Shown here piece after piece: positions 85 to 22,318 of a stretch of DNA of 28,840 bases. Position numbers and translations under genes: made by a program. Where the stretch lies: IMG/VR virus record IMGVR_UViG_3300009551_000105; one strand, given 5' to 3'. Every line of letters begins with the position of its first letter. Position 1 is the first letter of the stretch. A model generated the notes under the pieces. It made no database searches. It was not told where the DNA came from and saw only the letters and a list, made by a program, of their open reading frames with translations. Origin of the DNA: a virus.

Positions 85-513
85 ATGGAAAAAGTAGATT
101 TTAAATTTCACACCCAATCTAAACGCAATGATAAGCGTGGGAAAAATAATCTATTTTCAAAAAGGATCTATCAATTTTCAATTGATGGAAATTTAATTAA
201 TATATTTTATGGAACTGTTGAAGCTCAAGAAAAAACAGGAGTTCGTCGAGAATCTATCAGTCGTTGTTGTAACAATAAACTGAAAAGTTCAGGCGGATAT
301 TTGTGGTCATATAAAAATCTATGTCCTCCATTTCCTAGTAGAGAAGTACGTACAAGAAAAAATAAAATTATATTAATTGGTCCTAATCAAAATATTTACA
401 AAATAGGGAATTTAAAAAAGTTCTGCGAAGAACAAAAATTAAACTATAAGAGCTTTCATAAAGCTATTAATGGAAAAAACAAAGCCTACGGCATTTGGCA
501 AAGAAAGAAATAG
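85..513 (+). CDS. Standalone homing-endonuclease-like DNA-binding protein (Seg/I-TevI-type NUMOD-like HTH repeats, no catalytic domain); likely degenerate HEG remnant
   Basis: Two copies of the HEG C-terminal DNA-binding module: 'IYQFSIDGNLINIFYGTVEAQEKTGVRRESISRCCNNKLKSSGGYLWSY' and 'IYKIGNLKKFCEEQKLNYKSFHKAINGKNKAYGIW'. The same motif type occurs in the C-terminus of the GIY-YIG ORF at 10055-11035. No GIY-YIG or HNH motifs are present. ATG at 85 is preceded by GAAGAGA. Stop lies 3 nt before the sheath start. Confidence 0.6.
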   Translation: MEKVDFKFHTQSKRNDKRGKNNLFSKRIYQFSIDGNLINIFYGTVEAQEKTGVRRESISRCCNNKLKSSGGYLWSYKNLCPPFPSREVRTRKNKIILIGPNQNIYKIGNLKKFCEEQKLNYKSFHKAINGKNKAYGIWQRKK

Positions 514-516
514 AAA

Positions 517-3516
517 ATGGTCGATTTGAGATTTAAATCAGCAGGCGTTTCGGCAAGAGTAATAAACCTTACTGGACCAACAGCAATTCAACCAGTTGGA
601 ATTCCAGCAGGTGTTATTGGTACATCGGTAAAAGGTCCAGCATTCGTTCCGCAAACGGTTGCTACAACACAAGATTTTACTGCAATTTTCGGCGCCCCGG
701 CAGATGGTGCAGTGAATGGTCCATTGGCTATTAGTGAATGGCTTAAAAATAGACAATCTGCAACATTCTTTAAAGTTCTTGGTGCGGGTCAAGCAAAACA
801 AAGATTAACATCTGGAAACAATCAAGGAAAAGTAGCAAGCGCTGGCTTTGTTGTTGGTGATCAACAACCACAAGCTGGTGGTGCTCTTGGTAACAACACG
901 TATGCAAATGTAAGTCCAACTCTTGGAAGACTTTATTTTCTTAATACATTTATGTCTGAAGCAAATAGCTCTGGATTTTTAACAGATGCCGGACTTGCAA
1001 CAGCAGGCGTCCCAATTGTTAGAGGCGTTATTATGGCACCATCAGGCGTTGTAGTAACTCTTTCTTCCAGCGCAGTAACCTCTACGCCGCCAGCAGCAAA
1101 TGCAGTGGCTGGTGTTGGTACTGTTGGTTCAACTTTAGGAACCGTAAACATTGCTTCTGGTAGACAAGAATTCGTCTTGTTGCTCAATGGCCACAAAGGA
1201 ACAGATTCACAACATCCAAATGTAATAACTGCATCATTCGATCCAGATGCTCCAAATTATCTTGGAAATGCACTTAATACTGATCCGTTGAAACTTGAAC
1301 AAGCTGGACATTTGCTTTATGCGGACTATTCAGTTCACACTGCCTTGGCAGTTGTAACTGGTTGGGGTCTTTCAATAACAAGTTCATTAAGCACAACCAT
1401 TGCTGCTGGATTAGAGCCAACAGTATTCCTTACATCTGGTGCACTTGGCAGAAATACTGGTTCGACAACGGCTCCAAGTTATGAAAACTTTGAAGATCGC
1501 TACAGAACACCAAAATCAACTTGGATAGTATCGCAGAAATTTGGTGGATCACCAAAGAATTTGTTTAGAATCCATACACTTGATGATGGCGCATACGCTA
1601 ACAGCAAATTGAAATGGTCAATAGAAAACATTACACCATCTGTAAGTGATGTAAATCCATACGGAACGTTTGATATTCTCGTTCGTTCTTTTGATGATAA
1701 CGATAAAAAACGTGCAGTTATTGAAGCCTGGAGAGGTTTGAGCCTTAATCCAAGCTCTGACAAGTATATTGCTAGAGTTATAGGTGATACGCACACATAT
1801 TTCAATTTTGATGCTGCTGATGATTCGCAAAAAATCGTAAGCACTGGTGATTATCCAAATAATTCCATTGCAATAAGAGTTGAGATTGCAGATGCAGTAA
1901 GTTCTGGAGATATGGATCCAACTGCTCTTCCAATGGGTTTCCGTGGAGTCCCGCATTTGGTTACTTCCGGCTCCGCTCCTTTGGCAGCGTTGGGTGCATC
2001 GGTTGTATCTAGTTCATTCTCTACGACTGGCTCTGCGGATCCGGCATTCAAAGTTGTTCAAATGCCAATTCCATTTAGAACAAATCTTAATATCGGTGCA
2101 GTAACAAGTCAACGTGCAGATAAGAATTTGAATTGGGGTATTCAATTTGAACGTAAGATTAGTTCAACCGAATTGAATTCAACAACCCAACCTGAAAGAA
2201 GCATCCAGTTCTTTACAAAATACTTCCCTAACTTCCAAACAAGTTGGGCGAATGTAATAGTAAGTGCAAACGAAGGAACGCTTGATAGCACTGCAAATGG
2301 CATCTTGGATGCAGATAGATTCAACAATAATTTGTTCTCATTAGAGAATGTTAAAATTACACAAAACACAACAACTCTATTAGCTGATCTAACAACATTG
2401 GTTAGCTGGAGTTACGTTCGTGCGGGCAATATCGCAAATGCCGGAACTACAAGAGCATTGACCGTATCCGATCTTTCGGATGCGTCTGTACGTCAAGTAG
2501 CCAAGTTTAGCGGCATTGTACAAGGTGGTTTTGATGGTGTTCGTATATTCAACAATGACACGGCAACATTAACTAACTCGGCAATAGTCGAGGAAATGAA
2601 CAATGCTAACAGAGGAGTTTCTGATGGTCCAACTGTCAAAACTTATCAAAAGGCACTTGATATCATCACTGATGATACAGAAACTGATATTCAACTTTTG
2701 GCCATCCCGGGTATTAGACATAGCATCATAACCGACTCTGCTCTTCTAAAGACTGAAGACCGTTTTGATGCAATGTATTTGATGGATATCCAAGAATACG
2801 ACACAACGAATACTTTGGTTTCGTCTTCTGGACAAAACATCAGCGTTCGTTTCACAGCTAACCAACACAGTGATCGTGGAATTAATAGTTCTTTCGGTGC
2901 TGCATACTTCCCAGACGTAATAATCAATGATTCATTGAACAATACTGCTCGACAAGTACCACCGTCCGTTGCTGTCCTTGGCGCTTACGGATTGAATGAT
3001 GCCGTTGGATTCCCATGGTTTGCACCAGCAGGTTTTGCTCGTGGTGCTCTAAAGAGCACAGAACGCACGGTTCTTCCATTGAATCGTGATAATATGGATG
3101 CATTGCAAGATGTAAACATCAATCCACTTGTAAGCTTTGCAGGTTCCAGCGGTCCTGTTGTCTGGGGTCAGAAAACATTACTTGCAAGCGATTCAGCTCT
3201 AGAGCGTGTAAACGTTCGTAGATTGCTTATCTCATTGCGTCGTCAAGTTAGAGACGTGGCTAGAAGATTTATCTTTGAACCAGGCCGTGCAGAAACTCTT
3301 GCAAGATTCTCACAACTTGTAAACCCAATTCTTAAAAAGGTACAAGATCAGAAAGGTCTTGAAAAGTTCCTTGTAAGAATTGACACAACAACTACAACTC
3401 CTACGGATATCGAAAACAAAACAATTCGTGGTCAAATATTCTTGGTACCTACCAAGACCCTTGAATTCTTGTCTCTTGATTTCGTTGTCACAAACGGAAA
3501 TGTTAATATAACATAA
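517..3516 (+). CDS. Contractile tail sheath protein (T4 gp18-like)
   Basis: N-terminus 'VINLTGPTAIQPVGIPAGVIGTSVKGPAFVP..DFTAIFG' matches the sheath N-terminal signature. C-terminus 'INPLVSF..GPVVWGQKTL...RVNVRRLLISL...' matches T4 gp18 'INPV..GYVLYGDKT..RINVRRLFNML'. 999 aa; ATG with upstream GAAATAGAAAATG. Confidence 0.93.
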   Translation: MVDLRFKSAGVSARVINLTGPTAIQPVGIPAGVIGTSVKGPAFVPQTVATTQDFTAIFGAPADGAVNGPLAISEWLKNRQSATFFKVLGAGQAKQRLTSGNNQGKVASAGFVVGDQQPQAGGALGNNTYANVSPTLGRLYFLNTFMSEANSSGFLTDAGLATAGVPIVRGVIMAPSGVVVTLSSSAVTSTPPAANAVAGVGTVGSTLGTVNIASGRQEFVLLLNGHKGTDSQHPNVITASFDPDAPNYLGNALNTDPLKLEQAGHLLYADYSVHTALAVVTGWGLSITSSLSTTIAAGLEPTVFLTSGALGRNTGSTTAPSYENFEDRYRTPKSTWIVSQKFGGSPKNLFRIHTLDDGAYANSKLKWSIENITPSVSDVNPYGTFDILVRSFDDNDKKRAVIEAWRGLSLNPSSDKYIARVIGDTHTYFNFDAADDSQKIVSTGDYPNNSIAIRVEIADAVSSGDMDPTALPMGFRGVPHLVTSGSAPLAALGASVVSSSFSTTGSADPAFKVVQMPIPFRTNLNIGAVTSQRADKNLNWGIQFERKISSTELNSTTQPERSIQFFTKYFPNFQTSWANVIVSANEGTLDSTANGILDADRFNNNLFSLENVKITQNTTTLLADLTTLVSWSYVRAGNIANAGTTRALTVSDLSDASVRQVAKFSGIVQGGFDGVRIFNNDTATLTNSAIVEEMNNANRGVSDGPTVKTYQKALDIITDDTETDIQLLAIPGIRHSIITDSALLKTEDRFDAMYLMDIQEYDTTNTLVSSSGQNISVRFTANQHSDRGINSSFGAAYFPDVIINDSLNNTARQVPPSVAVLGAYGLNDAVGFPWFAPAGFARGALKSTERTVLPLNRDNMDALQDVNINPLVSFAGSSGPVVWGQKTLLASDSALERVNVRRLLISLRRQVRDVARRFIFEPGRAETLARFSQLVNPILKKVQDQKGLEKFLVRIDTTTTTPTDIENKTIRGQIFLVPTKTLEFLSLDFVVTNGNVNIT

Positions 3517-7997: not shown

Positions 7998-9920
7998 ATG
8001 AAGACATTTACACTTGCACAATTAGCAGAAGGTACGCACCGCCGTTCACTTGGCGCAGACGCACCACGTCTCGCTAAGAAATGGTCTGCAACTGGTCTTC
8101 TTGAAGGTCTTAAAGGCATGAACCGTGACAATATGTCTCGTCTTCTTGAGAACCAGGCTGCTGAGCTTCTCAAAGAAACGAATGCATTGTCCACTGGTGG
8201 CGCTGCCCTTACTTCAAGCGGTAAAATCGCAGGTTTTACTAACGTCGCATTCCCAATTGTGCGCCGTGTATTCGCAGGTTTAATTGCAAACGAAGTTGTA
8301 TCGGTTCAGCCAATGAGCCTTCCAACCGGATTGCTTTTCTATCTAGATTATACATACGGCTCATCCATTGGTGGCGATGCAGGTACAACTGCTAACCAAT
8401 TCGGAACAACGTCCGTAGTTAACCCATCAACCTACACCAGCCAAGACTCTGTGTACAACAACCCACGTGGTTCAGGTGTACGCTCAGGTTCTCTTGCAAC
8501 TGGCGGTCAATATGACTTGGTAGGTCATGGTTATTCAAAAGTTCACGTACAAAGCCGTTGGCTCTCTGGCTCCACTGACTCGGTCGGTGCATGGGTTTCA
8601 GGTTCCACATGGACGAGCGCAGCAACTGTAGCAGCTTCGGCTGACTTCACGGGCTTCAACGCACGTTATGCAATGTACGATTCAACTGTAGAAGTTGATC
8701 TTGGAAACAACGCACTTGATTACTGCTTCGCCTTCATCAGCGCATCAGAATTCTCGGGCAAGATCAATGGCGCAGACTTGAACAACATCAACCAAATCAG
8801 CTTGACTGGTTTCGGTGGTGTAACAAACTCCTCCATTGAATGGGGTGAGAAGTACCAAGGTGGTCGTGGCGTACTCAATCTCCGCAAGCTAACGCAACGT
8901 GGAAACTGGAACGCTACAGCAGGTCTCTTCACACCAGATCCACTTAACGGCTCACATCTTTTGTTTGTTGTACGTCTTGCTAACGCAGGTACGGCTCCAG
9001 CTCCAAACGGTGCAGTTGGTAACGCAGTAACAGCATCCGCAGCAATTGCAGACGCTCTCTCTGTAAACAGTGATGGTTCAACTCTTACGATCCCAAGCTT
9101 CGAATCTGACTTCGCCGTCGATTCCAGCCCACGTATCCCAGAAGTTGATATCCGTATCGAATCCACAAGCGTAACGGCTCAAACCCGTAAGCTACGTGCT
9201 CGTTGGTCACCAGAAATGGCTCAAGACCTTACGGCCTTCTACTCAATCGACGTAGAAGTTGAATTGACAAACATTCTCTCCGAGATGATCACGCTCGACA
9301 TCGACCGTGAAATCTTGAACGACTTGCTTACCCAAGCAGGTGCAGCAAACTTGTTCTGGTCACGTGCCCCTGGCAAGATCGTCAACAAGTTCACTGGAGC
9401 TGAAGCACTTCACACAAGCACGCTTGCACCAGGCCCAATGGCATTTGTAAACATCCAAGAATGGTATCAAACCCTTCTTGAGACGATTACGGACGTGGCT
9501 AACACCATTCACCGTAAGACGCTTCGTGGTTCAGGTAACTTCATTGTAACGTCACCAGACGTTTGCACAATCCTTGAGCATCTTGTAGCATACAAGCCAT
9601 CCTACCGTGTAGACGCAGATGGTCAAGTACGTGACAACATGGTCATCGGCGCAGAAGCAGTTGGTACGCTTAATAACCGTTACACCATCTACAAAGATCC
9701 ATACTTCCCAAGCAACAAGATCCTTGTTGGTTTGAAGGGTAACACCTTCCTTGAGAGTGGTTATATCTACGCTCCATACGTTCCTCTCATCTTGACTCCG
9801 GTCATCTATGCACAGGAAGACTTCACGCCACGTAAGGGTGTAATGACCCGCTACGGCAAGAAGATGGTTCGTAACGACTTCTACGGAACCGTTACAGTGT
9901 TGGATATGAGTACCATATAG
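7998..9920 (+). CDS. Major capsid protein, T4 gp23-like (HK97 fold with insertion domain)
   Basis: 'VRRVFAGLIANEVVSVQPMSLPTGLLFYLDY' matches T4 gp23 'VRRAIPNLIAFDICGVQPMNSPTGQVFAL'. 'ARWSPEMAQDLTAFYSIDVEVELTNILSEMITLDIDREILNDL' matches 'LKAAYSIELAQDLRAVHGMDADAELSGILATEIMLEINREVVDWI'. 'RGSGNFIVTSPDV' matches 'RGEGNFIIASRNV'. C-terminal 'YIYAPYVPLILTP...TRYG' matches gp23. N-terminal propeptide-like segment ends in 'ELLKE'. Confidence 0.95.
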   Translation: MKTFTLAQLAEGTHRRSLGADAPRLAKKWSATGLLEGLKGMNRDNMSRLLENQAAELLKETNALSTGGAALTSSGKIAGFTNVAFPIVRRVFAGLIANEVVSVQPMSLPTGLLFYLDYTYGSSIGGDAGTTANQFGTTSVVNPSTYTSQDSVYNNPRGSGVRSGSLATGGQYDLVGHGYSKVHVQSRWLSGSTDSVGAWVSGSTWTSAATVAASADFTGFNARYAMYDSTVEVDLGNNALDYCFAFISASEFSGKINGADLNNINQISLTGFGGVTNSSIEWGEKYQGGRGVLNLRKLTQRGNWNATAGLFTPDPLNGSHLLFVVRLANAGTAPAPNGAVGNAVTASAAIADALSVNSDGSTLTIPSFESDFAVDSSPRIPEVDIRIESTSVTAQTRKLRARWSPEMAQDLTAFYSIDVEVELTNILSEMITLDIDREILNDLLTQAGAANLFWSRAPGKIVNKFTGAEALHTSTLAPGPMAFVNIQEWYQTLLETITDVANTIHRKTLRGSGNFIVTSPDVCTILEHLVAYKPSYRVDADGQVRDNMVIGAEAVGTLNNRYTIYKDPYFPSNKILVGLKGNTFLESGYIYAPYVPLILTPVIYAQEDFTPRKGVMTRYGKKMVRNDFYGTVTVLDMSTI

Positions 9921-9955: not shown

Positions 9956-9984
9956 GGCCAGATGCAAATCTGGCCTTTTTCTTT
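9956..9984 (+). terminator. Rho-independent terminator after capsid gene
   Basis: ggccaga-tgcaaa-tctggcc followed by tttttcttt. Confidence 0.8.
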
Positions 9985-10054
9985 ATCTTTTTTGACTTCT
10001 ATGGAATATTTGATTAGGGTATACAAAAGTCTTCTTATGTTTTATTCTTTAGAG

Positions 10055-11035
10055 ATGAAAAACTTTTTTAATGGTCAATCAAAATGTGGTGGCGTGTATA
10101 GAATATTTTGCACAAAATCTTTTAGATCTTATATTGGTTCAACTGCTGTTTTTACAAACAGATTTTCACAACATAAAAAAGATTTATTTAATAATTTGCA
10201 TCATTGCAAATTTCTTCAAAGAGAATGGAATAAATTTGAACCAGAAGATTTTGTGTTTGAAATATTGGAGACAATAGAAATACAAAATCCGAAAGAAGCA
10301 AAGGAAAAAAGACTTCAAACAGAACAAAAATATATTGATGAGATATTACAAAAGTTCAATAGAGACCAACTCTACAATGGTTATACAAATGTAAGAGACA
10401 TTCCTTATCTTACGAGACACGATGACTATAAAGAAAAAATGAGAGTAAAAATGGTCGAATATTATTCCAAGCCAGAAAATAGAGAAAAATCAAAACAACA
10501 AGCGCTCAAGCAGTGGTCTGAACATTCAGCTAAAATAACAGTTACAAATAAAGATACAAAAGAAACGGTTTTGATAAATGGTTCCATTAGGGACTTCTGT
10601 TTAGCTCGTAATCTCTCATATAAATCATTCCATCTTATGGTCCAAGGAAAAGTAAAGGTCTCTGATGGCTGGTTCCTTGGCACGGAAGAGCCAAAGTATC
10701 ATAATCGTAGAGGTGAGAAGAGAGGTCCAATGTCCAAAGAACAGAAAGAGACAAGAGCGGACGTCTCAAGGGAAGGTATAGTTATAGAAAATTTTATAAC
10801 AAAGGAAACTATTGTGCTTGGTAAAAATATTAAGGATAGCTGCTCTCCAGGGAAGCTAGACTATAAGGCTTTGAGAAGATTGTTGCTTGATGAAACTTCG
10901 TTTACACAAAACGGATGGTTTAAGAAATCATTAGAGACCAAGGTTAGAAACGAGATTAAAGGTTTTTGTGGAAAGTGTAATCTAGTGTTTGGAAGTAGCT
11001 CAGGAATGAGAAACCATAGGAGAAGATGTGAATGA
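10055..11035 (+). CDS. Free-standing GIY-YIG homing endonuclease (T4 Seg / I-TevI-like) with C-terminal NUMOD-like DNA-binding repeats and a Cys/His zinc-finger-like tail
   Basis: 'GVYRIFCTKSFRSYIGSTAVFTNRFSQHKKDLFNNLHHCKFLQREWNKF..FVFEILE' carries the GIY..YIG, R, H, N and E motifs of the GIY-YIG domain. C-terminal 'LINGSIRDFCLARNLSYKSFHLMVQGKVKVSDGWF' and 'IVLGKNIKDSCSPGKLDYKALRRLL' are HEG DNA-binding modules. 'CGKC...H...C' at the end. The upstream in-frame start at 9962 overlaps the terminator, so ATG 10055 is chosen. Confidence 0.88.
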   Translation: MKNFFNGQSKCGGVYRIFCTKSFRSYIGSTAVFTNRFSQHKKDLFNNLHHCKFLQREWNKFEPEDFVFEILETIEIQNPKEAKEKRLQTEQKYIDEILQKFNRDQLYNGYTNVRDIPYLTRHDDYKEKMRVKMVEYYSKPENREKSKQQALKQWSEHSAKITVTNKDTKETVLINGSIRDFCLARNLSYKSFHLMVQGKVKVSDGWFLGTEEPKYHNRRGEKRGPMSKEQKETRADVSREGIVIENFITKETIVLGKNIKDSCSPGKLDYKALRRLLLDETSFTQNGWFKKSLETKVRNEIKGFCGKCNLVFGSSSGMRNHRRRCE

Positions 11036-17993: not shown

Positions 17994-18572
17994 ATGTTTG
18001 AAACTGTAAATGAAGATAGTGCTTTTACGCTCGAAGGATTGTTAGAAAATCTCCTAGTATCCGAAGGACCTGAAACTCAAGTCCCCGAAGGAACTTCCAT
18101 TGCTGTCAACGGGGATTACAGTCATCTTCGAATTGAAGTTAGAACAAATACTCCTGAAGGTTTTGAAGGATCGGAATATCAAGCAAACAATCTTGGATTT
18201 TTGGTTTTACACAGAGCCGAAGGAAGTGGACTTTGGGAAATAGATTCGGCCGGGTCATCTAAAAAATTTGGACCTTTGCTTTATGATATTGCTTTGGAAA
18301 TGGTTGTTCAGTATTTGGATGATGTTGGCGTTATCCCAGATAGGGAAAATTTATCATCTGAATCTTCAAATGTTTGGAAGTATTATTATTTCAATAGAAA
18401 AGATGTAATACACGAGCCTCTTCCAAAAAGATTGGTTAGCGACAAAATCAAAAAAGTTTTCAGAAAAGAGCCGTGGTTATCTTGCTATTATTTTAAAAAA
18501 AGAGCTTTGGTTATTTCAAAATTAAAAAGAGTTGGAAAAATTCATTCAGAAGATTATGATTTTTTTGAATGA
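17994..18572 (+). CDS. Hypothetical protein (192 aa)
   Basis: ORF with ATG; N-terminal motif shared with the previous ORF. Confidence 0.45.
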   Translation: MFETVNEDSAFTLEGLLENLLVSEGPETQVPEGTSIAVNGDYSHLRIEVRTNTPEGFEGSEYQANNLGFLVLHRAEGSGLWEIDSAGSSKKFGPLLYDIALEMVVQYLDDVGVIPDRENLSSESSNVWKYYYFNRKDVIHEPLPKRLVSDKIKKVFRKEPWLSCYYFKKRALVISKLKRVGKIHSEDYDFFE

Positions 18573-19317: not shown

Positions 19318-20025
19318 ATGTCAAATATATCAAGAGCTAGATTTCAAAAATTAGCAGGCATTCTCACCGAAGAATCGAAAGAGTCGTTGCAAGAAACCAT
19401 AATGGAAGGGGCTTCAAGACCTTTCGATATGGATGCAAAAGAAATGCTCATAAGATATTGTGCGTGGCTCCGAGCAATTCATATTTGGTTTCACGGAGCA
19501 CATCATACAACTCGTGGAGTTGGATTTTCGGGCGATCATACTGCTCTCTTTGAAAGAATTTACACAGCCGTCCAAGATGAAGTGGATGGAGCTATAGAAA
19601 AAGCAATTGGAATTACTGGCGACCAAGGTTTGGGATGCCCGAAGTTGATTACAAGAGAAGCTTTAACCCTAATCGATCGTTATGGTTCCCCTGCCGAAAT
19701 GGAATCAAAAAATATTGCAAAAGAAGGTCTTAAAATTGAGGAAGACTACATTGCTTTCGTAGAAAGAATGTTTAAAGCTTTTGAAGCAAAAGATATTATG
19801 ACGCTTGGATTAAACGATCAATTGGCAGCATCAGCAAATGCACACGAAACGTTTGTGTACCTTCTTTCTCAAAGAATTAGAAGCACAGAGGACACAGTAA
19901 TGCAAATGGACGATGTTGGGGAAACTTCAACTTTCCATCTTCCAGAATTACCAGCAAACCTGGGTACCGTACCAATGGCACCAGTTAAAGTTCCTAATGC
20001 TGGCGGCAATCCATTTGGAATGTAA
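19318..20025 (+). CDS. Hypothetical protein with leader 'SRARFQKLAGILTEESKESLQE' (paralogous to N-terminus of 21291-21830)
   Basis: ORF with ATG; shared LAG(I/L)L(T/K)E motif. Confidence 0.5.
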   Translation: MSNISRARFQKLAGILTEESKESLQETIMEGASRPFDMDAKEMLIRYCAWLRAIHIWFHGAHHTTRGVGFSGDHTALFERIYTAVQDEVDGAIEKAIGITGDQGLGCPKLITREALTLIDRYGSPAEMESKNIAKEGLKIEEDYIAFVERMFKAFEAKDIMTLGLNDQLAASANAHETFVYLLSQRIRSTEDTVMQMDDVGETSTFHLPELPANLGTVPMAPVKVPNAGGNPFGM

Positions 20026-20038
20026 AACAAGGAAGTAA

Positions 20039-20872
20039 ATGTCCAAAAAAGCTCTTTTAGAGACAATTGAAATTCTTGTAAAAGAAGAAATAGAAAGTCT
20101 CTCTTTAAAAGAGAAGATTAGAAGTTCTACATTTAATTGGAAAGAGTTCAAGGCCCTGCCAGATATTTTTAAAATGAAAGAATATTTGGATGCAACCTTG
20201 GTTTCTTTAAGCGAAACACGTCAAAAAACCGGAAGAGAAGGATCGGCTAGAAAAGTATATCTTCTTTCAAGTGGTAAAGTAATAAAACTTGCTAAAAACA
20301 ATGCTGGCTTGGCTCAAAATGAAGCCGAGGCTTCGGCATCAAAAACACCGGATATAAAGCCGGCAATAGCTAAAGTATTTGATAGCGATCCAAAGTTTTT
20401 TTGGCTTGTTTCCGAATTGGTTAAACCATTAGAAAAAAGCAATATGTATCGAGTTGGACAATTTTTTGGTGGTGATATTTTTCCAACTACTGATTCATTT
20501 GAACAATTTGCTTGGTATGTTTGGGAAAACAAAGGCGATGTTGATAGGTCTTTGATAAAATTTGAACATCAACAAGCTCCTTGGCTATCAAAATATAATC
20601 CAAACATTGGAAAAGATATCAAAAATCCAAAAGTAATAGCAAAACTAAATGAATTTTTCAAATCATTACTCGAGTTTTGTCAAAAAACTGGTTCAAGATA
20701 TGAAGATATCGCTTCAATTTCTTCTTTTGGTATTTCGGCAGAGGGAAATCTTGTAGTTTTGGATTATGGCTTTACGAAAGAAGTTGGACAAAAATATTAT
20801 GATTGGAGAACCCAATCAGATATTGAAGCCGGTGCAAAACAAGGTTATAAAGCAAATCTCAATGCAAAGTAA
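20039..20872 (+). CDS. Atypical protein-kinase-like (RIO/Bud32/Kdo-like) protein with N-terminal leader
   Basis: 'GREGSARKVY' resembles a kinase Gly-loop (cf. RIO 'GKEANVY'). 'KVIKLAK' resembles the VAIK lysine motif. 'GKDIKNPKVI' resembles a catalytic loop (cf. DLKPENIL). 'VVLDYGFTKE' resembles a DFG motif. Confidence 0.45.
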   Translation: MSKKALLETIEILVKEEIESLSLKEKIRSSTFNWKEFKALPDIFKMKEYLDATLVSLSETRQKTGREGSARKVYLLSSGKVIKLAKNNAGLAQNEAEASASKTPDIKPAIAKVFDSDPKFFWLVSELVKPLEKSNMYRVGQFFGGDIFPTTDSFEQFAWYVWENKGDVDRSLIKFEHQQAPWLSKYNPNIGKDIKNPKVIAKLNEFFKSLLEFCQKTGSRYEDIASISSFGISAEGNLVVLDYGFTKEVGQKYYDWRTQSDIEAGAKQGYKANLNAK

Positions 20873-21224
20873 GACGAATTTCCCCATCTTCATCTTTTTG
20901 TAAATCTTTTGACCAACCTTCTGTTATTTCGATAATGAATTTGCAACCAGAAGGAATTGGGTATTCTTCTTTATTATTTGATTTCATTGGAATGGTACAA
21001 ATCAATTTTCCTTCTTTGTCAAAACCAAGAAGTTCTAAATTGAATTTTACATTTCTCATATGAAATAATCTTTCCGGTAAATCATCCGTGAAGAGAAATA
21101 ACAAACCTTCAGAACTTGTAGGTCCAGTTGGATGATGTTGATAACCAAGGGCACGTTCCTTGTCTGTCCGTAAAACTTTTACAGAGCACTCTTTGTTTGC
21201 TATTGTACAGTTCCAGAATGACAT
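20859..21224 (-). CDS. DUF192 (COG1430/UPF0127) family protein
   Basis: 'RTDKERALGYQHHP....EGLLFLF......RLFHMRNVKFNLELLGFDKEGKLICT' plus 'CKFIIEITEGWSKD' fits the DUF192 consensus (..T.eeR.rGLM.R......GMLFvF......FWMkNT.iPLDiiFiD.dG.iv ... yVLE.naGw). Overlaps the convergent kinase-like gene by 14 bp. Confidence 0.6.
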   Translation of the reverse strand: MSFWNCTIANKECSVKVLRTDKERALGYQHHPTGPTSSEGLLFLFTDDLPERLFHMRNVKFNLELLGFDKEGKLICTIPMKSNNKEEYPIPSGCKFIIEITEGWSKDLQKDEDGEIRLTLH

Positions 21225-21855: not shown

Positions 21856-22263
21856 TCAAATGTTTTTTCTATTTCCAATTGTCATATGAAAACAGTGTTT
21901 TAAGTCTGGCGGACAATTATATTTTGCCCAAATTGGTAGCCCTAATTCGGAACGAATATTTTCTAAATCTTTACTGTAGCAATTCAGCCAATAGTATGTT
22001 TCGTCATTATAAACCACTGGTTCATATTGAAAATCGATCACTTTACCTTCGTAAAGCTCCCACTTTGTTAAATCTAATGGTTTTTCTTTACGGACTACTG
22101 TAATATGAGGAGCATAGCGTTGCTGATTACATTTGTACCACTTTGGTAAAAGTCCCTTGTAATAAGCAGAAATTTGTGGGTCAACCTCGACATTTACCTT
22201 ATAGTAAGTGTCTGGATCTACGACCGAATATCGTAAAATGCCCTGTGAGCTTATGAGCTGCAT
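21856..22263 (-). CDS. 2H-phosphoesterase-superfamily protein (two H-x-T-x motifs); candidate Acb1-like cyclic-oligonucleotide phosphodiesterase
   Basis: 'APHITVV' and 'HCFHMTIG' are separated by about 73 residues in a ~135-aa protein, as in LigT and Acb1 folds. Start uncertain (TTG at 22278 or ATG at 22263). Confidence 0.45.
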   Translation of the reverse strand: MQLISSQGILRYSVVDPDTYYKVNVEVDPQISAYYKGLLPKWYKCNQQRYAPHITVVRKEKPLDLTKWELYEGKVIDFQYEPVVYNDETYYWLNCYSKDLENIRSELGLPIWAKYNCPPDLKHCFHMTIGNRKNI

Positions 22264-22318
22264 AACGTATAATACCAAATTGGTATAAATTAATAAACCA
22301 TTATGTAAAGTTCATAGG

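Follow-up and report, generated by a model that had tools for sequence, protein, structure and literature searches.

An atypical protein-kinase-like protein from a large myovirus and its unannotated phage family

The gene and its surroundings

The window, which is the whole 28,840-nt stretch of DNA that was analysed, is a fragment of a large myovirus and encodes a tail sheath protein, a Gp23-type major capsid protein and a further virion structural protein (Table 1). Reading of the ORFs in the window sequence identified a 277-codon gene with an ATG start and a Shine-Dalgarno core, and since this begins only 13 nt after the end of the upstream ORF (19318-20025), the two are probably co-transcribed. 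The product of this upstream ORF, also on the plus strand, weakly matches a Dps/ferritin-like 'DNA binding protein' PHROG (E=3e-5), a 'starvation-inducible regulator' PHROG (E=2e-3) and Pfam DUF5856 (E=0.11). At its 3' end the gene runs into a convergent minus-strand gene (20859..21224) that encodes a DUF192 protein (Pfam E=6e-9), and the length given for this overlap in an earlier, sequence-only reading of the DNA is exact. Both the size of the product and the overlap recur identically in independent public gene calls from two other contigs. Within the kinase-like 3' end, just downstream of the DUF192 stop codon, we also observed a minus-strand terminator-like hairpin (20800-20818) formed of an 8-bp stem followed by a T-run, and the convergent DUF192 transcript could end here, inside the kinase-like coding sequence; taken as a whole, scanning the gene's surroundings for promoters and terminators was uninformative. 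There was no second paralog of the gene within the 28,840-nt window.

Table 1. Coordinates of the features described in the window, with conservation taken from the family alignment.
Feature	Position	Strand	Details
Tail sheath protein	517-3516		999 aa
Gp23-type major capsid protein	7998-9920	+	640 aa
Shine-Dalgarno core AGGA	20030-20033	+	5 nt before the ATG, read from the sequence
Kinase-like protein gene	20039..20872	+	277 aa, PHROG 4301 member
N-terminal extension, residues 1-57	20039..20209	+	from secondary structure, conservation and occupancy
Gly-rich loop and beta2, GREGSARKVY, residues 65-74	20231..20260	+	G68 and R71 99% conserved
beta3 strand, KVIKLAK, residues 80-86	20276..20296	+	K83 (codon 20285-20287) 100% conserved
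alphaC, N-terminal part, GLAQNEAE	20306..20329	+	G90, Q93, N94 and E97 ~100% conserved
Variable helical insert, hinge to alphaE	20465..20644	+	holds GKDIKNPKVI (20609-20638), unconserved
Catalytic loop, YEDIASISSFG	20699..20731	+	D223 (codon 20705-20707) 98%, G231 99% conserved; aligns on HGDLTTSN of TP53RK/Bud32
DFG-equivalent, VVLDYGFTKE, residues 239-248	20753..20782	+	D242 (codon 20762-20764) and G244 ~100% conserved; aligns on LIDFGLS of Bud32/TP53RK
3'-end overlap with convergent DUF192 gene	20859..20872	both	14 bp
Virion structural protein	26071-27309

Several further observations concern other ORFs of the window. An HNH-endonuclease-like ORF (85-513, plus strand) lies directly before the sheath gene, and a GIY-YIG homing endonuclease gene (9962-11035, plus strand) directly follows the capsid gene, with GIY-YIG genes also recurring beside the kinase-like gene in related loci. 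The Gp23 domain of the capsid protein occupies residues 358-631 only, and the N-terminal extension of ~350 aa that precedes it may represent a scaffold or decoration domain joined to it by fusion. Located 2 kb from the kinase-like gene, an 892-aa protein (22837-25515, plus strand) strongly matches the major vault protein of eukaryotes (MVP; Pfam MVP_shoulder E=3.9e-26, Vault_3 E=4.7e-7), and there is a single earlier report of MVPs encoded by phages, a preprint (bioRxiv 10.1101/2023.11.10.566534). The 140-aa product of a minus-strand ORF (21856-22278) matches PHROG 12204 (E=3.8e-15) and, below threshold, Pfam 2H-SAK (E=4e-5, 24.3 bits where the cutoff is 27), a 2H phosphoesterase domain from RNA-repair proteins of the 'Swiss Army Knife' type, and some relatives likewise have a 2H domain joined to their kinase-like domain. 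A Band_7 gene is found directly upstream of the family gene in another phage, and the Band_7/SPFH fold resembles the MVP shoulder. Finally, the unannotated ORFs 17994-18572 (plus strand, three genes upstream of the kinase-like gene) and 27306-27719 (minus strand) encode domains which other proteins combine with the kinase-like domain, with matches to P0213 (739-806), P0265 (303-373) and the N-terminus of P0048, and the product of 17994-18572 appears GNAT-like by eye, with no HMM match.

Family size and conserved residues

When the kinase-like protein was scanned directly against Pfam, NCBIfam and PADLOC there was no usable match, and the sole family model to recognise it was PHROG 4301, which is listed as 'unknown function' (E=1.6e-18, residues 32-259). 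Likewise, a Pfam scan of 105 aligned family members at E<=5 returned no recurrent kinase-clan family. Using a word-indexed search we identified 13 homologs, the nearest being 56% identical (E=1e-97), and a profile built from these retrieved >857 relatives. When 1.84 billion cluster representatives were searched exhaustively with an HMM, 4005 proteins passed E<=1e-3, of which 1305 also passed E<=1e-30. The family thus comprises no fewer than 4005 clusters at 50% identity, and the nearest homolog, the twelve others found directly and the thousands found by profile together indicate that the gene is under selection. A typical family member is a stand-alone protein of about 210-230 aa; many others are multidomain, with lengths of as much as 2130 aa, and in some of these the domain occurs two to four times.

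The family is almost entirely phage-borne, and is carried mainly by large uncultured myoviruses and jumbo phages. In IMG/VR it is encoded at 299 loci, many of which lie on contigs 200-370 kb long, and it occurs at 30 or more loci in 185,579 species-representative genomes, mostly MAGs, where the count of 30 comes from a one-pattern scan and is a lower bound. Kinases had been described as uncommon in T4-like phages in the sequence-only reading, but the present protein is not a rarity in such phages, as the size of the family and its many large myovirus and jumbo-phage contigs show. A tblastn search with the window protein gave 0 matches in 50,697 GenBank phages, and a more central family member used as query found four cultured phages, namely the Xanthomonas jumbo phages XacN1 and Xoo-sp13 and two Alishewanella phages. 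XacN1 ORF170 (BBA65318.1) and the Alishewanella phage protein WGH49852.1 are close to the family consensus, and XacN1, Xoo-sp13 and Slickus01 are cultured carriers. Family members in GenBank phages are always labelled hypothetical. For some members of ~220 aa (P0041, P0043, P0044, P0047, P0104 and P0121) the JGI/IMG name is 'mRNA-degrading endonuclease RelE of RelBE toxin-antitoxin system', and as neither the fold nor the motifs support RelE, this is probably a propagated mis-annotation. The window protein is an ordinary member, and it is the family that is the object of interest.

Conservation was determined across 308 domain copies aligned to the family HMM. At >=98% were G68, R71, K83, A85, G90, Q93, N94, E97, D223, G231, D242 and G244, and at >=94% were W122, F136 and Y254 (96% for Y254). 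The beta3 Lys (K83) and the alphaC Glu (E97), a trait of protein-kinase-like (PKL) proteins, are both present in 100% of the 308 copies, and from their positions E97 is the expected salt-bridge partner of K83. The Gly-rich loop carries the family signature G-S-S-R, beta5 reads W-x-E-M-E-L-A across the family, and the middle position of DYG is Y in 79% and F in 15% of copies. D223 and D242 are separated by 19 residues, which lies in the 18-20 range that is a further PKL trait, and the corresponding Asp-Asp spacing in PKA is 18.

All four peptide strings that had been put forward as kinase motifs in the sequence-only reading are present in the protein, and three of these, the Gly loop, the beta3 Lys and the DFG-like string, are true family motifs, because G68, R71, K83 and D242-x-G244 are 99-100% conserved. 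The fourth, GKDIKNPKVI (residues 191-200), had been assigned as the catalytic loop but is unconserved, with D193 being Asp in just 16% of copies and N196-K202 forming an insertion that is absent from >90%. The segment between E126 and D223 spans 97 residues in the window protein against a family median of 73 (range 59-144), and its extra helices between the hinge and alphaE are an obvious candidate for substrate recognition. At the N-terminus, residues 1-30, of which 6 are acidic and 6 basic, make up a charged helix of amphipathic character (helix predicted at 3-27), and residues 31-57 are part of the conserved domain, as a three-helix segment containing F32, F37, K38, L40, Y49 and L54. The leader sequence that had been proposed for this region is not borne out, as there is no Sec-type signal. 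L-x-E motifs resembling the sites cut by T4-type prohead proteases occur, as a pattern only. The C-terminal tail (residues 256-277) is unconserved and has low model confidence.

Predicted fold and comparison with known kinases

The structure model of the kinase-like protein, which is of moderate confidence, places strands at residues 71-75 and 80-85, a helix at 88-101 and strands at 113-116 and 122-126, followed by several helices, a long helix at 197-217, a loop, strands at 230-233 and 238-240, and D242. This is the order of elements in the kinase core, and the predicted five-strand antiparallel N-lobe with alphaC, followed by a helical region bearing the catalytic loop, is again a PKL trait. 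The conserved residues occupy the corresponding structural slots, with K83 in the second strand before a helix (beta3), E97 on that helix (alphaC), D223 after the long helix (catalytic loop) and D242-Y-G after two short strands (DFG). The fold search was led by APH(2'')-IVa (8.1), Rio2 (6.8), APH(2'')-IIIa (6.7) and the RNA kinase Ark1 (6.5), with further hits to WbdD (6.2), PknB (5.9), HopBF1 (5.9) and Bud32 (5.6). Using Foldseek against BFVD, the top matches were uncharacterised proteins of large phages (RaK2, CBB, Presley and RP12 'protein kinase domain-containing'), with T7-like gp0.7 kinases lower down (E 1e-3 to 2e-2, TM 0.3-0.4).

A search of the PDB with the single sequence gave nothing but a spurious transketolase match to 'YGFTKE'. 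When a diverse family profile (A4) was searched against the PDB, just four sequences were returned at E<=10, and all were kinases in the correct register. The first was the N-lobe of SteC (E=0.012), in which the K83 position falls on K256 and the Gly loop on GSGSYGTVY; SteC K256 is an experimentally validated catalytic lysine (PMC13395416). The others were three TP53RK/Bud32 entries (E about 2), in which alphaE-HGDLTTSN-LIDFGLS is aligned over ...GDLxRLSSYG...LIDYGLT. These E-values (0.012 to 2) are not significant singly, and there is no Pfam or NCBIfam kinase match; fold, motif order and alignment register all concur, and a PKL assignment is made on this agreement. The kinase-like fold proposed from the sequence is therefore supported, through the fold search, the conserved Lys/Glu/Asp/Asp and the weak, register-correct kinase matches, and the window gene can be described as encoding an atypical protein-kinase-like protein of a phage with a T4-type capsid. 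The same moderate confidence of the model would be the opening for an artefactual fold match, with the protein belonging to the related ATP-grasp/SAICAR-synthetase-like ligases, which we regard as highly improbable; the ligase assignment was set aside on comparison of the fold-search results. We also examined E. coli YrbL, a minimal PKL protein, and neither hhalign of the family profile against YrbL nor phmmer of YrbL against all collected relatives revealed a relationship, while two YrbL-PhoP_reg hits and one AceK_kinase hit were obtained by Pfam among the multidomain relatives.

The PKL domain of this family is short. The conserved domain stops a median of 12 residues past DYG, and this places the activation segment and alphaF-alphaI among the missing elements. 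In addition, a conserved His before D223 is absent (87% of copies have Gly at position 222), and position 228, the kinase Asn site, is Ser in the window protein and S in 61%, N in 19% and D in 5% of the family. With the C-lobe stopping after DYG and both Asn and His absent, this is a minimal kinase and not one of RIO/Bud32 type. The lack of these two residues, the invariant R71 in the Gly loop and Q93-N94 in alphaC, all foreign to classical kinases, and the flanking of the gene region by virion genes could alternatively point to a kinase fold with other chemistry (AMPylation as in SelO, glutamylation as in SidJ or NMP transfer as in NiRAN), or to a non-catalytic nucleotide-binding pseudokinase or structural protein. 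We judge this to be very unlikely. K/E/D/D are ~98-100% conserved in the 308 copies and also in tandem paralogs, which is unusual for pseudokinases, position 228 is usually polar or acidic (D/E/N/S) and could still aid metal binding, and there is no sign of virion association.

Comparison with described kinases indicates where this minimal PKL family stands. T7K (T7 gp0.7) and JSS1_004 are phage kinases that phosphorylate host defence proteins and so inactivate them, acting on many systems at once (PMC13645617), and in common with the present family they are phage-encoded, of PKL fold and non-canonical at the DFG position. T7K has DPV at this site and a C-terminal shut-off/DNA-binding domain (PMC13645617), whereas the PHROG 4301 family has DYG and ends soon after. 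Likewise, the T7K family is small, with ~220 reported proteins, and largely limited to T7-like phages (PMC13645617), in contrast to the 4005 or more clusters (50% identity) of the PHROG 4301 family. With hhalign of the family profile against T7 gp0.7 giving a probability of 0.3%, we rejected a placement within T7K. SteC, OspG/NleH and HopBF1 are type III secretion effectors directed against eukaryotic proteins, unlike the phage family, and the likeness to SteC is sub-significant and confined to the N-lobe, with SteC retaining alphaF/alphaG past its DFG-like motif where the PHROG 4301 family does not. RIO/Bud32 (TP53RK) proteins retain both the HGDLxxxN motif with its His and Asn and the post-DFG helices, and the PHROG 4301 family has neither; the match to RIO/Bud32/ArkI (E about 2) is not significant, and those proteins serve housekeeping in cells, unlike the accessory genes of phages. 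The HxDxxxxN motif and the large helical substrate-binding C-lobe of APH/choline kinases are also absent.

A truncated Ser/Thr/Tyr-type kinase was described by Iyer et al. in 2017, which has lost its C-terminal subdomain and kept the ATP-binding and phosphotransfer residues, occurs in phage and prophage polyvalent proteins beside ART, GNAT and Pol-beta NTase as well as stand-alone, and was proposed to modify the host in a manner akin to the T7 kinase (PMC5512222). In common with it, the PHROG 4301 family has a lost C-terminal subdomain, kept active-site residues and an occurrence in polyvalent proteins (ART-PolyVal, GNAT, NTase, 2H and SAM lyase). However, the signature of the Iyer kinase (a Glu ahead of strand 2, a Gln within the final N-lobe strand, and an insert that separates a conserved His and Asp), as judged by its text description, is absent from the 308-copy alignment, and its reported distribution in Verrucomicrobia-Chlamydia and Bacteroidetes prophages differs from that of the present family, found mainly in large uncultured myoviruses and jumbo phages. 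The PHROG 4301 family is matched by no Pfam model, any polyvalent-kinase model such as Kinase-PolyVal included. As the signatures of T7K, RIO/Bud32, APH and the Iyer kinase are all absent, we regard this as a separate PKL family that has so far gone undescribed, and which may be distantly related, as a sister, to the Iyer polyvalent kinase.

Deployment in phage genomes and proposed function

Using Pfam on 79 multidomain relatives we detected ART-PolyVal (10), GNAT (5), poly(A) polymerase/CCA-adding (4) and 2H phosphoesterase (4+2) domains, with other nucleotidyltransferases (3), NUDIX (2), SAM lyase (2), ParB_N (1) and HD (1) as rarer fusion partners. Examples include two family domains followed by GNAT, 2H and a CCA-adding enzyme (P0258), a family domain with SAM lyase and PolyA_pol (P0265), a family domain with an Acb1-like 2H domain (P0201) and ART-PolyVal with a family domain (P0183). 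These multidomain relatives are 'polyvalent proteins' of Iyer et al., which are proposed to enter early in infection and mix unrelated conflict activities (PMC5512222). The window protein itself, unlike these relatives, is stand-alone, and the injection suggested for it in the sequence-only reading is unsupported, the sole indirect hint being the presence of the domain in relatives as a module of polyvalent proteins.

Fusion to 2H and CCA-adding modules, the good fold hit to Ark1 and the weak 2H-SAK gene at 21856-22278 would be consistent with an RNA (tRNA) kinase in phage RNA repair or modification, like the archaeal PKL-fold ArkI or a polynucleotide 5'-kinase. We consider this improbable, because polyvalent proteins combine unrelated activities, so that fusion implies no shared pathway (PMC5512222), the Rnl1 and PolyA_pol neighbourhoods stem from a few related phages, most loci have no RNA-repair neighbours, and the 2H match in the window is under the Pfam gathering score.

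Phage loci often contain tandem arrays of 2-4 family paralogs, and loci with arrays, or with two copies in a single protein, include L051/L052 (860-4143), L020/L024/L025, L037, L041, L071, L007 (7347-9170) and L067 (7325-10066). Nearly all array paralogs keep the catalytic residues, the exceptions being one copy in L067 that has no R71, Q93, N94 or E97 and one copy in L007 with D223E. Clustering of neighbours at 68 non-redundant loci and Pfam analysis of 146 immediate neighbours revealed no conserved operon partner, and the recurrent neighbours (5'-3' exonuclease, DnaB, dUTPase, RecA and the sheath gene) reflect lineage synteny only. In one lineage a replication module surrounds the family gene, which in L001 is on the opposite strand to the module, and in another the sheath gene is 1.3 kb downstream of it (14 loci). 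The fusions, the tandem arrays and the absence of a conserved operon partner together indicate the behaviour of a mobile accessory or effector gene.

Taken with the conserved catalytic set, we infer that the family probably constitutes a catalytically competent, minimal PKL member that serves as a phage-specific accessory or effector module for host takeover or counter-defence. The N-lobe would provide a complete ATP-binding set, formed of the G-S-S-R glycine loop, K83 and E97, with the C-lobe reduced to alphaD/alphaE-type helices, the D223 catalytic loop and the metal-binding D242 of DYG. ATP-Mg would be held between the lobes, gripped by K83/E97 and D242, and D223 would act as the catalytic base in transfer of the gamma-phosphate to a substrate hydroxyl, a phosphoryl transfer being preferred here to another nucleotide-dependent reaction. 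The variable helical insert (residues about 131-202) would bind the substrate, and host (or phage) macromolecules may be modified in this way for takeover or counter-defence, by analogy with T7 gp0.7. The nature of the substrate can be proposed only tentatively, by the same analogy; a protein substrate and a takeover or anti-defence role are favoured because of the precedents of the T7 kinase and JSS1_004. APH being the top fold hit, and the fusion of some relatives to nucleotide-directed modules, are in turn consistent with a small-molecule or nucleotide kinase (APH/choline-kinase-like), which would phosphorylate a metabolite or an immune signalling nucleotide and so blunt host defence. This is unlikely in our estimation; the immune signalling target would be a cyclic oligonucleotide, an ADPR-derived signal or a NAD-related compound.

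A broader and more speculative proposal, which we put forward as possible and somewhat doubtful, is that PHROG 4301 and its relatives form a second, far larger phage-specific kinase superfamily. Its members would be activation-loop-free, constitutively active counter-defence effectors, diversified by tandem duplication and shuffled into polyvalent proteins, and may act on non-protein targets (immune signalling nucleotides or tRNA) through an unusual active site (R71, Q93, N94 and no Asn) with non-classical chemistry.

Within the window, the kinase-like gene marks the segment from 17 to 22.7 kb as an accessory or effector island in a structural-gene region. More generally, the PHROG 4301 family is at least an order of magnitude larger than the T7K family and is spread through large myoviruses and jumbo phages, and it has been without annotation, carrying the name 'hypothetical' in GenBank, having no model in Pfam, NCBIfam or PADLOC, and at times being wrongly labelled RelE. 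It retains a fully conserved catalytic set in a minimal scaffold, and if active this would represent a widespread route of host manipulation and a compact kinase scaffold without an activation loop. In that case, reading the PHROG 4301 family in this way would also provide a useful annotation for thousands of phage ORFs.
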